64,000 nt of DNA from Lingula anatina (Eukaryota; Animalia; Brachiopoda): contig CM120641.1 of the NCBI GenBank assembly GCA_051362555.1, forward strand, positions 44,832,401-44,896,400. The letters are read 5' to 3'. Positions within the stretch are counted from its first letter, which is position 1. Each line of letters begins with the position of its first letter. The notes beneath the pieces are model-generated. The model searched no databases. It was not told the DNA's origin and saw only the letters and a program-made list of their open reading frames with translations. Positions 2,451 through 13,545 of the stretch are shown piece by piece. The position numbers and the translations under genes are program-made.

Positions 2451-2639
2451 TTGGGTAAGTAGCATTTAGTAGGATTTCACGTTTTTAGACTGTCTGGAGT
2501 TCATATCGGTCGATCCCGCTGATCAGCTGAAGCCTCAGCTTGTATATATCCTTTTCCCTTTGGTGTCCTTGATCGTGATATGAAGTTTACTTTATTTTAT
2601 TTGGTTTACCTATATTTACGCTACTATTCCCCGTCGTTC

Positions 2640-3312
2640 ATTCCCTCCAGCATGGCCGCGGGACTAGTGTTACGGAGCAAATATGACGTCACTGTAATCG
2701 GTTAATACTGCAATGCAGCAAGGCAGTCGTGTCAACATTCCAAGGTTCTGCACTGATTACCATTTTCAAGTTAGGCATATTTTATCCACTGAATTTGTCT
2801 TGTGCTTTATCTACCTATGAATTAAAGTTAATATATTTTCAAGTCTGTGATATCCCGTGAAATAGTGAAGTTTATACGCCTAACCATATAAGGCAAGTTC
2901 TTGCTAAGGCAGTCCGCAGTCACGTGGTAAAGAAGGCATGTCTGACGATTTACATCATGTAAGTGCGCACATAAATGTAGATCGTCTTGCCTAAATACAC
3001 AATGCAATTTGCTGTGCTTTTAAAATAAATAATGCATTGTATCTGAGTCTTCATACTGCACTTTGAACTTCTAACACCCCAGAATAATACGACTTCGACT
3101 CAAGTTATATGTAATTTTCAAAAGTGATGTAAACGTTACGCAGCAAATGTATTTTTGTCCAATCATAGCATTTTATTTGCTGTTCGAAAGTCCCAGCGGA
3201 TAAATAGCCGGTCGAAAGAAGTGCCTGCCACCCTTGTAAGCCTTCTCTCGGATAAGGAAGTTAAACTCTGATAGTCAGTCTCAAGTCGGAGGTATCACAA
3301 ATTGTCAAAATG
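2640..3312 (+). promoter_or_regulatory. CpG-enriched promoter and 5' exon of the cofilin locus, possibly bidirectional
   Basis: CRE palindrome TGACGTCA 2684-2691, E-box CACGTG 2921-2926, CCAAT 3159-3163, TATA-like GATAAATA 3199-3206, then aaaATG|gtaggt at 3310. Confidence 0.65.
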
Positions 3313-6300
3313 GTAGGTGTTTTTACTGCTTGTTTATACTTTGAAGCAATAAATTACTATGGGTTAAGGTATATATGTGTGACATTTTAAATTTGTACGT
3401 AAAATTGCCGAAATTATCGAATGAAAAAGGAAGGGGGTGTCCGCTAACGTGACGAATGCTTAATGTTAGATCTAGAAGGTCTAGAAGTTAACGGAATGAG
3501 TCACCGTCTCAATATTAAGAATTCGAAGGGTATAAGACGCGTAGTTTAATCTGATCGACACTAATGAAAATGCAACATTTCATTCATTTGAGCGGACACC
3601 GTTCTAGCTTCAGTACATGCGTGTGACCCAGTATTTTGACGGGTAACGGCCCTTATTTCTACGGGATTGACCTAATTTGGTCTTGCGCATTGGCATTGCT
3701 TAGCCAGAATGATAGGTGGTATCTCAAAGTCACCCGGAGAATTTTGTTATTTCGATATATCTTTATAGCTTGTGTTTTTATTTTGTGTGTTAGTGCAAGC
3801 GGCATGATTGTGACCCATCCCCTTAACACAACTTCTCTAATGAATTGAGGCATTGAATTTTTTTATCAGTGTGTGCCATGGATTAGTTTACATGAGTAAT
3901 ACTGACATTTACAACTATTTTAGAAAAAAAACAACAAAAACATCAACAACAATGTGGATTTTAAAGGGTGAAATACACCTATGTAATAATTGTTAGTGAT
4001 GTGTGCCCTTTCAAGAGGATTCTATTGGGCGGGGGGAGGGCAGTTCACAGGAAATAAAATCGTTAATTCACAAATCACAGTAAATAAGAAATTATTCATA
4101 TTTCATTGAAAGTATACAGGTATTACGAGTTAAAAATCACAAACCAGCGAGTTTAATAATTTTGTTTCATGTAGGATGGAAAATGATGAAGCTGCAATCA
4201 CGAGTTACAGGAATTGGGTTCTTTATGGATCATGCTAAATAATATGTGCATTTCACACTTCTTGGGGAAGAAAAAGTGGCTTTCACAGATAAGAAAATGC
4301 CCAATGGGACCCTCCTTAAATCGCTTCCCTATTTCTCATTTGAAGGATAACATGCAATGGAGGGGGTCAGAGCTTCTTTTTAAACAGTAAATAAAAATTG
4401 AAAAAGAACTACAATGAACAAGCATTGTATTATATAGTTTATTGATAATTTTGTAATATTACTCATATTTTATATATTTTACAATTTGATTATATGACAT
4501 GTCTTGGGAAGGCAATATGATGGTCCTGTTGTTGTACAGTTAGGAGTATGGGAATAATTGTCATGCCCCTCCCCTGTGAATCATTTTCATTAATATAACA
4601 TACTACTTGCAGTATGAATAACTGCAAAGGCTCTCAGAGTTATGTTTTACAGTTGTTTAAATTATTTAACATTTATTTCCTTGTGGGTTTTGTATAAAAT
4701 CTATATTTGTAACATGCAACAACATTTGTTACTGCTGACTAAATGTCATACCTATAATTAAAATTTCAGTATGTCAGATTGAATCAGACGTATTTGTGGC
4801 AAATTGAGTAATTGTGGCCCATAAGTCAGATACTCACAGGTTATGCATAGATCCTGGAATAAATAACATAACACATGGGAAGAATATACACCTGAGCTAG
4901 CTAGAAAATGTGAAAGGTTATATGGATTCCCCTGTTTGGAACTTGCAAGTGCTATTACCTGACAGTTTTTGAGTTGAATGTAGCTGTGAGGTAAATTGTC
5001 TTGATATGAAAATGTATGGACTACTTTTCTTTTTATGCTGTTTATGATTGAATGAAAAGGAATTATATTAGAAAAATTGAAAACCTGGTAAAATTGTTTC
5101 TGTTTTCATTATTAAATATGGGACACTTTTGGTATATAATTTGTATATATAGATATGTCCAATGTTAATGCGCAGGGAGAAAAAAAAATATAGAAACAAG
5201 TACAAAATAAAAATTAAATGTTAGGCAAAAGACTCTACAATATCCAGAAAAACTCAAACAAGTGTACATTGAAGGGTGTGGGTTAATAGATCCATATTTA
5301 GTCGTAAATATGTCAGACTCCACTACACGATGATATAAATACAGGCCTGTTTCTTTGGCTACCAGACTGATGCATTTCATAAATGGGTGAACTCCCTACG
5401 GATCTTTGTATTGGAGAAATTCTGTGATGAGTTTGCATGATTTGCATGTAGTTCATGTGATCTGCGTGCGTTTTTCACTGCATGTTAAGCCAGCCAGCCA
5501 GTCAGCTTGAAGGATGAGGAAGACCGAAGTGCATGTGCAGCCTGTTGGTGGGAAGATGATGCCTGTAACGAAAAGGTCAGGTTCTGAGTTTTTTGTCTTG
5601 CTTAAAACTATTATTATAGTGTTTAAGTTTGCTGATTAGTCTTTTTTTTTTTTTTTTGGGGGGGGGGGGGGGGTCAAACTGCTGATATTGGTCGTTGTTG
5701 TTATAATTACCAATTAGTGCAGTTCTTCCCCAACCCAACTCTAATTTGTCTATTTATGTCTGTTGATTAACAAAAAAAAAAATAATAATAATAAGCAGAT
5801 TTGTTGAAAAAACATAAGGCATTTTCCAGAGCAGAAATATGTCAAGATTTGCTCTTTGGCAAATGCTTTATCTGTACCTTGCATCTGCTATTTGCAAACT
5901 GTTCCACATAGTTCAGTTGTTCATAGAGAGTTGAATACTAACCAGTTTTCCCTGTACACAACTTTTGTGGTAATCACATCCCCTTTTACACCAAAGTTTT
6001 CAACATACTGACCACTGTTTGTGCACAAGCAATGTCTGCAAATATTTTTTCTGAAAAGAAAAAAAAAATAATCAGTTGTAAAATTGATGCCTTTAGAAAC
6101 AGTTGGCAGTGTTCATTGTGCAAATGCCTTTTGTTTTTCCCCATGATTGATTTAGTATTGTTATTTGTTTGGTTCCCTTTGATGGAGCAATGTAGCAATT
6201 AATCGACTTATTTTTGTGCTGACAAATAATAGGCACTGTTTGTTTGCATGCCCTTTGGACTTCTGAATTATAACTTTCTAACAGAATTTGTTCTGATTTA

Positions 6301-7517
6301 CGAGGGATATTATGTGTACATTTACATTTTTGTCTTTCCAGTCGTCTGGTGTGGCGTGTAAGCCAGAAGTCTTCACGATATTTGAAAATGATTTCAAATT
6401 GGGTCATCTTCACAGATACATCATCTTTAGTATCCAACAGAATGACAAATGTATTGATATAGAATCCTATGGAGACAAAGGTTTGTAGTGCTAATATTGT
6501 CACCCTTTTGTAACTTGATGGTTTATTTATAATTTTCTAGTATTTAAAGTTTTCTTTTTTGTTATCATTACTTTGTAAATAATTATTAATTGTACCTTAC
6601 AATATAAGAATCTGCATACATATACATCCAAATTTGGAGAAAGAATATAGGATATTCCCGCAAGTAGAACCAAATGTGGAGATTACACACTAAAATATAA
6701 CAGCTTGGAATGAAATGCTATTGGCCATCAATTCTATTAGAAGACTAAGTTGGCATTCTGCAAAAATAGATACATTTCCTTTTTTCTTTTTCGTTTTTAT
6801 TTTCTTGTTTATTATTATTATTATTATTATTCCAGATGCAACATATGATCAATTTTTAGAGAAGCTTCTCAAAGCAGAAGAAGACAAGCAGTGTCGGTAT
6901 GCAGTGTATGACTACATATTCAAACTAGATGATGGCTCACAAAGAAATAAAATTGTTTTCATTACATGGTAGGTTTTTAAAAATTGTTTTAGGGGGTTTG
7001 TATGGAGTAGGTTTCTTGGGCCATTGATAGATTTTTAAACGTTAACTGAATTAACCAGTGAAATGACTTTATCCGGCCTATAAGGTATTTTTATACATGA
7101 ACTGATTTAACCATTGAGTTGACTTAATTCATCCTGTAAGATGAATAATGAACAAACATTTTTTCCACTCTGCTGAAGCAGTTTGAATGTGTACATTCAA
7201 CTTCTTGAAAATATAAATTTTGAATAGGGTTGGTAATCCATTTTCAAAAGGTTTAACAGCATTTGAAAAAAGGCGATGCTGGTATTGTGGTTACCTGTTC
7301 TCCTACTTTGAGACTCGGTATGTAAATGATTCTTTTTTCATCTTTTTTCAGGATCCCAAATGGAGCTAGTATTAAACAAAAAATGTTGTACGCCAGCAGT
7401 AAAAGAGAAATCCGAGGGAAACTGACAGGCATAGCCAAAGATCTTCAGGCAACAGATCGGGATGAAATTGGCGAAGATTGTATTTTAGAAAAATGCAAAG
7501 AAAACATGAGATTCTGA
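3310..7517 (+). CDS. ADF/cofilin isoform A (146 aa). Exons 3310-3312 (ATG only), 6342-6480, 6836-6968, 7352-7517
   Basis: Spliced translation MSSGVACKPEVFTIFENDFKLGHLHRYIIFSIQQNDKCIDIESYGDKDATYDQFLEKLLKAEEDKQCRYAVYDYIFKLDDGSQRNKIVFITWIPNGASIKQKMLYASSKREIRGKLTGIAKDLQATDRDEIGEDCILEKCKENMRF. It shows the ADF-H motifs CRYAVYD, KIVFI-W-P, KMLYASSK and LQATD. All introns are GT-AG with consistent phases (441 nt). Exon 2 has no Met, so it needs ATG|gtaggt at 3310. Confidence 0.93.
4015..4314. mobile_element. Degenerate MITE-like element in cofilin intron 1
   Basis: Inverted termini gaggattctattgggc / gcccaatgggaccctc (13 of 16 match); internal (t/a)tcaca repeats. Confidence 0.5.
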
Positions 7518-9082
7518 TGCCCAGTCTCATCAGTATTTGCTTTTAAGAAGTTTGAACTAAATGACTTGAACAAGTTTTTCTATCTATATTGTCCTGCCAA
7601 ATCATATGTGACTTGTAGGACATTGCTTCATAAAGCAAATTTATCAGGGCAGTTTCTCTGAAAAAAAAAGCATATAGAACAGATGCTCAACCATGTTATT
7701 TTCACATGTCAGATCTACTACTTTGCCAATGAAATAGAAACTGATATTAAGAAGGGTACAAATGTCTTCAGAGAAAGTTCTGAAGTTGTTTTAAAGCTTC
7801 CTTATAACAACAGCAGCTGGTAATGTATGTAACATAATATGACTTACTGTATTTGTACTTGTTAAAAAGTGTGACTGACCTTAATTTTATAAGACTATAG
7901 AAAACTTGTGAGGGTAATTTATGTACTGATAATGTTAAAAATGTGGGAAGTTGGGAAGAAGGGGGGTTAACTAAAAAGAACCCGAAAAGTAAACTAATTA
8001 TAGAGTTGCTTTTCATGCCGGTATTACTTAATATGCTACATCTTCATGATACCAATATGCTTGATCCCATTCAGGTGATGAATTTTAAAGTAACAGGCTT
8101 TTGTGTAGAATTTAATAATTGATGGTTAGAAAATGTTTTCATTGCATTTGGTAATGTTCCTTAATGTCCACTATGTGGCCTTGAATTCATGTTGACTTTT
8201 GTATTTGAAACTTGTCTATTTTATCAAAAGAAATTAATGTTTTCACTTGTACCCATTTTGCTTATTGTTGATAAGATGTCTTGTTCATACTATATTTAAA
8301 ATAGTCATAATGTCATTCATATTCTGACACTATTTGAGTTAGCTTGCAGCTGTGCCTTTCAAAATGTCTTGGGCAACATTAATATTTTGGGAAACTCAGA
8401 TATGTTCAGTTTGATGTTAAGCTCAAAATTGTTTTTGACTTATTTTGATGTCATTTTACATGCTTTCTTAGGCATGAAAATAGCAGAGTATGGTCAGTAT
8501 ACCACCTGCACTAAATGCTCCAGTTGTAATGATTCTCAAGTAAAAAAAACTCGCAACTTGCCCAATTCAGGAAAAAATATTTAACCTTCATAAGAGAAAA
8601 AGAGATGTCAGATAAATTTGTGCCCATCAGGAATCTGATTTTTACATATATTGTTACCAAACAAGCTTCTGGCAAAGAAAGTTTTTTTTTTCTAATTTAG
8701 GCAATTAATTAAGTTCAGGAAAAAATTAAGATAACCCCAGTTTTGACTTTTTTATGTCTAATTATATTAAAAGATGACTAGACGGGTTGATCCTTGAAGA
8801 AAATGAACAGATGTCTGCAGCCCTTTGGGACATTCACTTTACAGTGATATTCCTTGTGGGTTACCACACCTTTACAGAAACAAATTCTGTAGCACACAGA
8901 TCTTTTAATAGTATTGCACGATGTCCAAGGGAAGCTCTGTTTCTTAATGTGGGCAGTGCTGCAAGGTCACACATAGTAAGGTGTACATATTGGTATTTCT
9001 AATAGACACGAAAGGCTTTACAGGGGGAGGGGGTATAGGTCTTTTTTTCTTCTTTGTGACATTATATTCAGATTTGCATTGG

Positions 9083-9119
9083 AATAAATGCATTTGATAA
9101 AACAAAGGTGTTTTGTGTT
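9083..9119 (+). terminator. Poly(A) signal for cofilin isoform A
   Basis: AATAAA 9083-9088 followed about 20 nt later by a GT-rich element (ggtgttttgtgtt). Confidence 0.6.
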
Positions 9120-9249
9120 CAAGATTAATCGAATGATACGTAAATCAAAATTTCCAGGGTAGTTGTGTGAGAGCTTGGTTTTCTGAGTGTGTGAGGGAAG
9201 AGCTTGAGGGGGAGAATTTTGCTCTTAGTTATTTATTTTTTGTTTCCAG

Positions 9250-12200
9250 TCTTCCATGTCGGGTATAAAGATACTGCCAAATGTACTAGAGCAGTATGAA
9301 AAGTTGCAGAAAAAGCATGAATTAAAGTACATAATCTTCAAAATTGGTACCCCAGAAGGAGGAAAAGATGATGTTATTTATGTGGATTGTGCAGAGCCAA
9401 GTAAGTGTGCAATCCAGTATGACGTACTCTGGTATTTCTAAAAGACAATTTCGTTAATTTTACTCTGTGCAATTTTATTTCGCTTAGCCAAATTGCAACT
9501 TTTCCCCCTCTTTTTTCTCCACAATGGTTGAAATTGGACTAAAACAGGTCAAACCAACCCTATTTTATTTAGCCAATTTTAGACTGGGTTCCCATACTTG
9601 GGTCGATCCATCTGGATCAACCAAACTCCCTGGTGGTTCACACTAAATTGCTATCAGCTCAAGAGGCATAAATGTCTGTCACGCCTTCTGAATCAGCTAG
9701 GGGTAAAGATAAATACCCCCTAACAGTTTAACTAGGCATGACAGACGTTTAAGCCGGTTAGTTTGATAGCAATTTAGTGAGACTCCCCAGGGAGACGGAT
9801 CGATCCAAATATCTGTGGGAATGGTCCCTTAGTCAGTTTTAGCATTTGGCTAAATTGGCAAGTGTTAGCGCTTTCCTCGTAACTATTATTTGCATGTATT
9901 TGAAAACAATGGCCCTGTAAGTAACTAACCTCATATTTGTTTTCAGATTTGCTTTGTTTAGGTAAAAAAGCAAAATTGGTGTGGTTGGTTAAATTTTACC
10001 TTAGTTTTGGTACATTTTGTGATGTTGTGTAATCCTGTGTGAAATCCAATTTTTTGTCAATGCATAGGGTTGTGGCATATAAAGTATAAGGGTATGGAAG
10101 ATTTTAGTGTTCAATGAACTGTTGAAAAAAATTTAAAGAATGTTAGAACTCTTTCGTCATCCATCTGTTCTAGCTGTCACCAAACCTATTTCTTTTAACT
10201 TTTAAACGTTTAATGCCTGTATATAGGCTTTCTTCAATATCTAGTTTTTTTAACCAACTTTTTTCCATTAACTTCTTTTTTGCCCAGGTTATCATTAGTT
10301 TGATTTTTAAAAAGTATGTATTTTCACCCATTGAAAAGTGCTGTTTTCAAATACAATCAATGAGGACAAAATATATATGTCATGTCAACATTTAATATAT
10401 ATTATGTATATATGTTTTTTTTTCATTTCAGGTGCAGATAAGTCACAAGGTAAAACGTGATTTTTTTGTTTTTGTTTTTGTGATAAAGCAATTGTTATGA
10501 CAACAAATGTAATAAAATGTGTTAAGGTTCCTAAAAGATCTTACCTTATTAGTGGCTTAATGTTTTGAGAAAATGGAAATATTTTAAAACTTATATAACT
10601 TATAATGTGCCAAAAACTTTTAGACTACTAGCCCGAACCAAAAAACACTAGCCCAATTTAAATAATTCATTTAAAAAGTTTAAGCAGATGTTGTAAAGAG
10701 TTGTGGTACCATACTGTACATTTGTATAAACCTTATTATAGAAGTAGAGCAAGTGAATAACAGTCAATCAGGTTAATTTCCAGTTGAGGAGGTGGTAAAA
10801 TTAATTAAAAATATATTTAATTCTTTTAATATGGAAAAAAATTTTTTTTTAATTTGTAATACCGAGTATCGTTACCCTTACTTTTCATATTTTTAGAATA
10901 CCTTTTTTTTTTTCATTTTTTATATGCAATCAAATTTTTTTTTATAATTCCTATTCTTTTTATTGACAAAGGTTCTTTTTTGTCAATTTATTTCCAATTA
11001 CATCGGTATATAATGCCACTTCTAATTTAAAATACATAGGTGTTGTAAGGGTAATTAAACAAACATCTTACAATTTTTTTGGTTACAATTCTTTTGGTTA
11101 TATATTTGTAAAAACAACTTTTCAATTCATTACCAGGACAAAGTGTGGAGGGGTAGCCATGACATAAACCGAACTATCCCACATTGTCAAGAATAGGTCA
11201 TAGGGTATTTATGAAACTGCCAGGGTCTTGTTGTTTTTAAAAGGCAATAAGCAAAGGAAAATGTATTTACTCATGGATATTAAAATTATAAATAAAAATA
11301 TAAACAAAAAAGGAAATGGAATACTCCACCCCTCAGTCTGCTAAGTGGTCCTAACCCAAATGTTCTATGAGATAAAGCATACATTAAACTTGCTCCGGAG
11401 ACAGTGTTGTTTTGACAAAACCTGTTGCTAGTACCAAGGAATTCCGGTCTGATCCAGTTTCTTGATTGACAGCAATTTGTAGTCATGACAACAAACTGGT
11501 CAAATAAAAAGATGCCGACACGCTGATCAGACAGACTGCTGCTATAAATAACTACAGTGAAGTTATTTATAGCAACTAATCAATATTCAGTAGTTAGAGC
11601 TAGGTGTGAGTTTTTTCAACTGAGACCCATATCATACTATTTAGAAACGTCAAATTAGATGCAGGGACAAAAAAGACTGGCAACTTGTATTTTTGAAATC
11701 TTACTGAGTGTTTAAATAGGTTCAAAATTACAACTAGCCCGTTTGGGCTAGTGCTTTATAAAATTTCAACTTTTTTACTAGCCCGGTGCCACTTTAGGTG
11801 GGCAATTGCCTCGGGCTAGTGCTTAACGTCGCAGACTGAATAATACTTATAACATAGTGTATAATGTAATAATACTTATTTATATTACTTGTTTTGTTTC
11901 ATTCCAGAGGAGCATTACGACGACTTTTTAAAAAAGTTACAAGAAAAACCAGGGGAGGGAAGATATGCTGTCTTTGACTTCGATTGTGGTGACAATGCAG
12001 TAAAAATAGTTTTCATTGCATGGTAAGCAGACTATATATATTTATTGTGATCTATGTGGTGACTGTCAATGTTCAAAACATCTGGTTATGTTGTCAAACT
12101 TACAGGACCGATGAACCGAAGTAAGATATAGGCTGTATTATACATGGCACAGAGCTGTTTTACACTCCCTACCCCCTTTAAGCATTATGTAATATTGTAT

Positions 12201-12940
12201 CAAAACTGACAGTGGGTGTACCCCCTTGTTTGACCCAATGATCTATAAAACAAAATGTACAGCAAATAAATGCTAATTTTGGGCTCTGGTAAAGAAAATT
12301 AGTGTATCCATTTACTTAAAAATATTAAATTGTAAGTTTGTGTTTAGTAAATAAATGCTGCTTTTGGGCTCTGTGTATGGTGTGAAATCACAAGTGGGAT
12401 TACGTGAAACTTGGGTAGGTCTGAAAACGCTCCATGCCATCCATTGGCAGAGTCTCTGAAGCTGGTGTACCCCATTGACCAAATACCTTATTTTGTACAT
12501 CATTATTTTCTACTTTGTCTGTTCATTTCACAGCTTTGCTGCCTTGTTGTGATTTAAGTATTCTTGGTAGAAAGACAGAATTTTTATCTTTGTACTTTTA
12601 TAGGATTTTCACCCATTGTTTATACTAGTTACAAGAACCAAGTTTCAAGTTTCACGTGGCTGTTGTTGCTTTCTTATCAATTTATGATTTAGTACTGCAA
12701 AGTAATTTTGATAAATGTTTTTACTTTTATTATTTTTTCTACAAATATTTCAATTGGTTTGTAATTTTTTCTAGGGTTCCAGATGGTATCAAAGTTAAAC
12801 AGAAGATGTTATATGCATCTAGCAAAGAAGCAATAAAGGCTAAACTTGACGGAATCAAGGTTTATATTCAAGCAAGTGATTCCTCTGAGATTACAGAAGA
12901 AGCTGTTAGGGCCAAGTGCTTAGAGAAGTCATATCGTTGA
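9250..12940 (+). CDS. ADF/cofilin isoform B exon set (150 aa with the shared ATG at 3310-3312). Exons 9250-9400, 10432-10449, 11908-12022, 12775-12940
   Basis: Translation (M)SSMSGIKILPNVLEQYEKLQKKHELKYIIFKIGTPEGGKDDVIYVDCAEPSADKSQEEHYDDFLKKLQEKPGEGRYAVFDFDCGDNAVKIVFIAWVPDGIKVKQKMLYASSKEAIKAKLDGIKVYIQASDSSEITEEAVRAKCLEKSYR. Phase-0 acceptor tgtttccag at 9241-9249. Intron positions and phases match set A. Confidence 0.92.
9582..9828. mobile_element. Palindromic MITE (PIF/Harbinger-like), copy 1
   Basis: Nearly full-length fold-back (cactaaattgctatca / tgatagcaatttagtg; ctccctgg / ccagggag; ttccca / tgggaa). Homologous to 63096-63308. Confidence 0.75.
10620..11838. mobile_element. Degenerate non-autonomous DNA-transposon-like insertion in a cofilin B intron
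   Basis: Clustered subterminal ACTAGCCC/GGGCTAGT motifs at 10626-10653 and 11733-11820; perfect 14-bp hairpin 11540-11553/11561-11574; left terminus unclear. Confidence 0.45.
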
Positions 12941-13353
12941 ACTGTTCTTTTAAAGTGGCTGTGATCCAGGCACAGTGGGGAAACGTGCCCAGTACCTGGT
13001 GCAACGAACAATGAGACAGACCATCTTGAACAAAACAATCATGCCCAATAATACTTCAACTTGAGAAGCAACTGATATGTTTCTTCTTTCAAGCTGTTTA
13101 TGTTTTCAAATGTAAGAATAGAAATTTTTATCCAAGACGTTTATCTTCACCACGTACTGGTTGTCAACCACTAGCTACTGATCTTACGAGATCACATACA
13201 TTAAATGCTTAGTTGGACTTGGAAATCATTCATTGCAGCCCAAACTTTTTAATTGCATCCTCTTTGTTTTTGTGTTGAGTTTGTGATATCTAGATACATA
13301 CACATAATTTAAGCTATGACCTTTGGTGAAATTCCTCTTTTTCAAATTCCAGA

Positions 13354-13545
13354 AATAAATGTTTAGAAAGTGTTGGCAACCGATGCCATCTTGCACAATT
13401 ATCTTTCAATGAATCAATGAATTGCTAAATTCTATATTTAACTGGACAATTTGGTTCTTTGCTTCAAGGTACACTGCAAACATTAGGGAGTTGAGTGTGA
13501 GCATAACTGTAAAGAAATGCAATAAACTTGTGGTATTTGTCTTTC
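13354..13545 (+). terminator. Candidate poly(A) signals for cofilin isoform B
   Basis: AATAAA at 13354-13359 and 13521-13526; the second is followed by GT/T-rich sequence. Confidence 0.5.

Follow-up and report, generated by a model that had tools for sequence, protein, structure and literature searches.

The unc-60 gene of Caenorhabditis elegans has one first exon in common, after which come two series of exons, and its intron 1A is retained in muscle, as described in passages of three articles (PMC3469465, PMC1781344, PMC3875643). According to the same passages, ASD-2 and SUP-12 bind CUAAC repeats and a UGUGUG element located just 5' of the exon 2A acceptor, which brings about this retention, so that exon 1 is held back until transcription of exon 2B (PMC3469465, PMC1781344, PMC3875643). 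The relevant section of a field review terms this gene structure 'unique' (PMC3875643), and part of one of these articles records muscle and non-muscle cofilin isoforms with different actin dynamics (PMC1781344). Here we describe an actin-depolymerizing factor (ADF)/cofilin gene in a 64,000-nt stretch of the genome of the brachiopod Lingula anatina (assembly GCA_051362555.1, contig CM120641.1, positions 44,832,401 to 44,896,400 of the forward strand), called the window below, whose own numbering is used throughout. This gene is an RNA-supported second case of the unc-60-type layout, in a distant phylum: a first exon that contributes only the initiation codon is spliced to either of two complete ADF/cofilin exon sets, A (6342-7517) and B (9250-12940). 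The initial annotation, made from the sequence alone, had proposed such a two-cofilin switch outside nematodes, and the proposal holds in the brachiopod; exon 1 joined to set B yields a protein 100% identical to the RefSeq entry XP_013404016.1. In the open-access full text and bioRxiv searched, the layout was not reported outside nematodes, and no paper linking Lingula with cofilin or actophorin was among the hits listed. Neither 'cofilin' nor 'actophorin' occurs in the accessible portions of the two Lingula genome papers, and the accessible portions of PMC11853071 and PMC4696841 hold nothing on gene structure.

Four raw-read RNA runs (X1, X4, X7 and X8) from three studies, all under the same species label, were mapped on positions 2500-13500. 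X1 and X4 are stranded and assign the cofilin RNA to the + strand, and X7 and X8 are oligo-dT runs; counts of starts, loose ends and differences refer to the best-supported rows. The joint from exon 1 to set A (3312|6342) was carried by 263 reads in X4 (57 start places), 18 in X7, 35 in X8 and none in X1. The joint from exon 1 to set B (3312|9250) was carried by 116 reads in X1 (40 starts), 186 in X4 (63 starts), 775 in X7 and 610 in X8. Both junctions had been singled out in the initial annotation as the ones to look for in RNA, and both were present; the opposite outcome that it had named, no reads over 3312|9250 and B transcribed from an exon of its own, did not occur, the joint being found in all four runs. 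Both joints depart from 3312, and the coding contribution of exon 1 is the initiation codon alone.

Within each set, internal joints were also covered. Reads spanning A3 to A4 (6968|7352) numbered 4, 334, 26 and 31 in X1, X4, X7 and X8, and those spanning B4 to B5 (12022|12775) numbered 79, 126, 713 and 582, respectively. Reads running from B2 through B3 to B4, whose letters between 9402 and 11906 are those of the 18-nt microexon B3, amounted to 306-310 in X1, 148-149 in X4 and 65-66 in X7, and the microexon was also contained in loose ends of 527 reads in X7 and 425 reads in X8. No joint skipping the microexon was present among the joints listed for the four runs. In three runs, the exon 1-to-B counts were about equal to those of the internal B joints, and in X1 they lay between the two internal joints. 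Since the first joint of B is about as frequent as its internal joints, exon 1, rather than a separate promoter, is likely where most B mRNAs begin.

In X7 and X8, the exon 1-to-B joint was reported as 3313->9251. Judging from the letters, this would be the same joint on an allele with T9250G. This substitution, seen in both runs, lies at the first base of B2 and changes Ser2 to Ala, so that the protein begins MAS in place of MSS. Most reads of these two runs were only 95-99% like the window, which indicates that they derive from a diverged population sharing the species label. The A2-to-A3 joint (6480|6836) is missing from the joints listed, as masking covered the repeat at 6771-6840; GT..AG intron ends, the reading frame and a junction-spanning KDATYD motif common with the homologue P0004 support it.

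The gene lies on the + strand in an AT-rich region (GC 0.30-0.39) without any N. Shared exon 1 (3242..3312) consists of a 5' untranslated region (UTR) of approximately 50-68 nt, which contains no upstream ATG, and the start codon at 3310-3312, the sole codon common to both products; its 3' end reads GTCAAAATG, followed by the donor gtaggt. Molecule begins and ends gathered at 3240-3260 in all four runs, the molecules of both exon 1 joints sharing a single start cluster (3242-3260), and reads over the joints extended 73-75 nt back into exon 1. A TATA-like ATAAATA at 3200..3206, approximately 36-60 nt 5' of the start cluster, is likely the core promoter, judged from the position of the cluster at 3242-3260. 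The lone ATG|gtaggt exon had been predicted at this place, and the sequence and both read joints agree with the prediction.

Set A comprises exon A2 (6342..6480, joined to exon 1 in reads, depth 153 in X4), exon A3 (6836..6968) and the coding part of exon A4 (7352..7517, with a TGA stop at 7515-7517). Intron 1A, which is spliced out for isoform A, occupies 3313..6341 (3029 nt). Set B comprises exon B2 (9250..9400), microexon B3 (10432..10449), exon B4 (11908..12022) and the coding part of exon B5 (12775..12940, ending in a TGA stop), with a 3'UTR that continues past 13140; the microexon is a component that the first reading had not singled out. The intron at 3313-9249 (5937 nt) encloses all of set A. 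All introns of both sets are GT..AG, and their phases, 0,1,2 in A and 0,1,1,2 in B, indicate that the intron positions match. ATG plus set A encodes 146 amino acids (MSSGVAC...), and ATG plus set B encodes 150 amino acids (MSSMSGIKI...), the two proteins being 39% identical (blastp 8e-29). Frames, intron ends and phases agree with the initial annotation, which had described two full paralogous exon sets with phase-0 acceptors, matching introns and strongly diverged products. In a tblastn search, no third cofilin exon set was found within the window, and no Rfam family was found there.

Exons A3 (7.1e-11, 42.3 bits), A4 (1.8e-12, 47.5 bits) and B5 (9e-15, 54.9 bits) exceeded the Pfam gathering score of Cofilin_ADF (PF00241; 22.4 bits), and the A3 and A4 matches together span profile positions 40-125. 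The B4 match fell under the cut-off at 19.9 bits, A2 scored 12.4 bits (E 0.13), and B2 alone gave no Cofilin_ADF match in the Pfam scan. The whole protein of exon 1 plus B reached 106.5 bits, its match covering positions 2-125 of the 125 in the profile. Set A had been thought to lack a start Met of its own, and indeed its exons encode no Met before residue 103. An in-frame ATG with no intervening stop lies at 6312, within the intron 30 nt 5' of exon A2; its use is unsupported, the read depth in X4 being below 1 there versus 153 in the exon bin.

The relative use of the two sets differed greatly among the runs. A accounted for 0% of the exon 1 joints in X1, 59% in X4, 2% in X7 and 5% in X8, and the A:B ratio of these joints ranged from 0:116 (X1) to 263:186 (X4). 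In X1, the depth was below 1 across the A exons versus 157-197 in the B exon bins. With an A share of 0-59% across runs, the choice between A and B is strongly sample-dependent, which points to a regulated switch.

The 3'UTR of A probably extends over 7518..9105. In X4, the depth was 215-222 up to 8371 and then 64-98 up to 9105, whereas in X1, which expresses B only, it was 0-2.8 over the same bins. The AATAAA at 9083-9088 is the sole canonical poly(A) signal in 7518-9249, and the depth suggests that the A 3'UTR likely ends approximately 15-20 nt past it. A likely A poly(A) signal at 9083, some 160 nt upstream of the B acceptor, had been noticed beforehand, and the measured distance to the start of the B exon is 161 nt. 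Two TGTGTG hexamers (at 9164 and 9188, within 9164..9193 on the + strand) lie in this 161-nt gap, a density of 2 in 200 nt versus 0.94 per kb in the window (approximately 0.2 expected). This pair is a candidate for the GU-rich element downstream of the poly(A) site of A, or may be bound by a regulator. By comparison, the last 200 nt of intron 1A contain no GTGTG, no TGTGTG and only one CTAAC, at 6278 (-64). As the nematode CUAAC and UGUGUG elements are missing at the A acceptor, the regulators or their sites likely differ from those of unc-60. As a separate observation in the A 3'UTR, 63 nt at 8547-8611 were replaced by 17 other letters in 125 reads of X4, an indel polymorphism that lowers the mapped depth.

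The RNA reads show exon 1 spliced to either set A or set B, so that a single promoter gives rise to two complete ADF/cofilins. Production of B would require that the donor of exon 1 be held unused for 5.9 kb, and one intron would then carry away all three exons of A together with its poly(A) signal at 9083. Which set is used is likely decided by keeping the A acceptor, and hence the poly(A) site of A, blocked in a regulated manner for as long as the B acceptor is untranscribed. The regulators acting at the A acceptor are likely other than those of unc-60, or bind at sites unlike theirs. The arrangement itself was likely born by tandem duplication of exons 2-4 behind an ancient ATG-only first exon, independently of nematodes. 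Taken as a whole, with one promoter, two cofilins, blocking of the A acceptor and a likely independent duplication, we hold this explanation to be highly probable.

Several points weigh against it. The A:B variation is known by sample and is not assigned to muscle or non-muscle tissue. The unc-60 mechanism cannot be transferred motif for motif, the A acceptor being devoid of the nematode elements. For the A2-to-A3 joint, and likewise for the poly(A) site of A, the evidence is indirect. With starts and differences taken from the best-supported rows, there may be a minor start in 9106-9249 or further coding differences. Finally, the free tree sets A beside flatworm and other spiralian cofilins and B beside oyster and clam proteins, which bears on the origin of the two sets.

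Phylogenetic trees were built from 64 rows (quick) and 36 rows (careful), hand-chosen from 303 proteins with fragments and most fungal matches left out; they contained no nematode, insect or vertebrate sequence. In both free trees, A and B were not sisters. A was placed near nemertean, flatworm and mollusc cofilins, and B was placed with a Saccostrea protein (P0057) and the Mya arenaria protein 'actophorin-like isoform X2' (P0022). This non-sister placement hints at an older duplication and weakens a recent independent origin. It would fit an arrangement homologous to unc-60, or an old spiralian gene, whose duplication predates the brachiopod lineage and was kept or lost elsewhere. The distance between A and B is also similar to that of each from amoeba actophorin (last exons 46.8 bits between A and B, 44.4 and 49.8 bits to actophorin), A and B being 39% identical, and UNC-60A and UNC-60B are 38% identical, as given in a passage of PMC3875643. 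However, the supports for the placements were weak (45-89, and given as 86/40 and 81/53 in the free tree), and a tree constrained to join A and B was likelier by 8.36 log-likelihood units and was not rejected (p-AU 0.737). The branch of B was long (1.81). Moreover, the bit scores against the Protein Data Bank (PDB), through which alone nematode sequences were compared, gave no reciprocal pairing of A with UNC-60A and B with UNC-60B: A4 scored 23.2 bits to UNC-60A and 15.0 to UNC-60B, B5 scored 27.8 and 25.9 bits, and whole B scored 53.7 and 57.2 bits. On this evidence, we regard a shared or older origin as unlikely.

In a more specific form of that proposal, the one-promoter two-cofilin gene would be an old spiralian or protostome design sharing its ancestry with unc-60, in which A is an ordinary lophotrochozoan cofilin and B an 'actophorin-like' paralogue that oysters and clams also possess (Mya 'isoform X2'); we consider it doubtful. 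If it were true, the same whole-protein switch would operate across several phyla. A was 45-50% identical to ordinary cofilins, with scores of up to 132 bits, and B scored at most 104 bits; the closest matches of B besides itself were fungal cofilins (42% identical). Against a shared origin, Drosophila has one ordinary cofilin gene. Vertebrate cofilin genes have an ATG-only first exon. The same first exon is described for plant ADF genes in part of PMC11374638. Because the ATG-only first exon is old, being found also in plant ADF genes, tandem duplication behind it is an easy route, which favours an independent origin. We therefore prefer the view that the Lingula arrangement arose independently of nematodes, which is likely but not proven.

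Two proteins in the collection deserve mention in their own right. The name of P0022 (XP_052767666.1, Mya arenaria), 'actophorin-like isoform X2', and its place near B in the tree suggest alternative isoforms for a cofilin gene of the clam as well. The 113-amino-acid 'twinstar-like' model P0002 of a mite (RWS19916.1, Leptotrombidium deliense) contains the part of cofilin encoded by the last exon twice in tandem, a hint that cofilin exons may be arrayed in tandem in a further phylum.

That A might be splicing noise or a decaying exon set, with B as the only working cofilin of the locus, would agree with its being absent or minor in three of the four runs and with the database searches. A profile of both last exons, searched against 1.84 billion representatives, gave 1457 matches, and the best of them, P0001, corresponds to B starting with residue 4. 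With a profile that included the three A exons, the matches at 226-230 bits were all to the remaining rows of that profile, and the best 120 of its 1369 matches comprised no Lingula protein corresponding to isoform A. A search for longer proteins homologous to exon A4 gave 11 candidates, none of them significant, which is weak evidence. Meanwhile, exon 1 plus B matches letter for letter the RefSeq protein 'actophorin [Lingula anatina]' (XP_013404016.1, 150 amino acids). The exon 1-to-B model is thus already public. Isoform A, the more conventional cofilin, appears to lack an entry in the protein sets searched, nor was any record found there that ties this exon 1 to a second complete cofilin. 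The reading frame of A is nevertheless intact over 146 amino acids, two of its exons exceed the Pfam gathering score, and it is closer than B to ordinary cofilins (up to 132 versus up to 104 bits). A is also the major isoform in X4, with 263 versus 186 exon 1 joints and a depth of 150-220. No difference was listed in the 438 coding bases of A versus 13 in its 3'UTR (7846-8529). We judge it very unlikely that A is a by-product.

All five differences listed within the B coding sequence were synonymous third positions. Together with the pattern in A, this is suggestive of selection on both coding sequences, and suggestive only because a further 176 difference rows lie outside those listed. The nearest PDB relatives of the products were actophorin and yeast, insect and human cofilins. 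A and B are likely both functional in depolymerizing and severing actin, and likely differ in their properties and in the tissues in which they occur.

The idea that B is transcribed as an independent gene from a promoter or first exon of its own, with a start at the in-frame ATG of its fourth codon (9256), and that the exon 1-to-B joints are rare read-through, draws on the 147-amino-acid RefSeq model 'actophorin-like [Lingula anatina]' (XP_013393067.1), which is B from this internal Met (MSGIKI...), and on start and loose-end evidence being that of the best-supported rows, but it is extremely unlikely, as reads from exon 1 to B (116, 186, 775 and 610) are as many as those over internal B joints, no start cluster near 9100-9250 was among the best-supported rows of the four runs, the loose end before 9249 in X1 (37 reads, agreement 1) is exon 1 sequence, the depth in X1 is 2.8 directly 5' of B2 versus 157 in the B2 bin, and only 161 nt separate the AATAAA from the B acceptor. 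The two Lingula RefSeq models of B (P0001 and P0151) lie on separate scaffolds of 511,720 and 14,044 bases, which are probably allelic in an older assembly.

Some further features of the region were observed. At 2500-2866, reads antisense to the cofilin gene were found in the stranded runs X1 and X4 at a depth of 7-10, suggesting a neighbouring minus-strand transcript that starts or ends approximately 400 nt upstream of the place where cofilin transcription begins. The 3'UTR of B apparently has more than one end: the depth in X7 and X8 dropped from approximately 200-270 to approximately 8-12 after about position 13140, whereas X1 and X4 held 90-197 to 13500 and beyond. In the intron after B2, 9610-9810 forms an inverted repeat with 94-nt arms that are 73% complementary. 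Many reads stop at 9831 and 9872 and continue into unlike sequence, the depth being 3-15 on both strands, and the repeat looks like a hairpin-forming element expressed from other copies.

The unc-60 gene is used as a model of how the processing of an entire transcript can be switched, and the Lingula case shows that the design recurs. If the two cases are convergent, an ancient ATG-only first exon allows a whole-protein switch to evolve easily through tandem duplication; if the arrangement is ancestral, it has been lost in many lineages or overlooked. Two questions now arise. One is whether regulators other than ASD-2 and SUP-12 can keep a donor waiting over approximately 6 kb that include a functional poly(A) site; the other is whether a division of cofilin into two tissue forms has taken place repeatedly among animals.

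The closest described system remains C. elegans unc-60. In both genes, the first exon carries the initiation codon only and is followed by two tandem series, each encoding a whole ADF/cofilin, according to the sections on unc-60 in PMC3469465 and PMC3875643. In both, splicing to the downstream set leaves out the whole upstream set. In the worm, each series has a 3' end of its own and the upstream poly(A) site is skipped as well, and the depth and the AATAAA make the same probable in Lingula. The identity between the two products is also similar, 38% in the worm and 39% in Lingula (PMC3875643, in the passage comparing the worm isoforms). The Lingula gene differs from unc-60 in having introns that are kilobases long and three (A) and four (B) downstream exons versus four and four in the worm, and in an A acceptor without CUAAC repeats and a UGUGUG stretch. 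Moreover, orthology of A and B to UNC-60A and UNC-60B is unsupported by the PDB bit scores.

A second comparison is offered by the cholinergic locus, which comprises unc-17 (VAChT) and cha-1 (ChAT). As summarized in part of PMC3875643, it also has one promoter and a shared first exon, and splicing picks one of two complete proteins. Unlike in Lingula, the shared exon of the cholinergic locus is untranslated, its two proteins bear no relation to each other, and the first intron of one gene contains the other gene; in Lingula, the shared exon bears the start codon and the products are tandem paralogues. Vertebrate cofilin-1, cofilin-2 and ADF/destrin are, as the PDB matches show, members of the family that includes Lingula A and B, but they are encoded by separate genes with separate promoters, whereas the two Lingula products come from one transcription unit.

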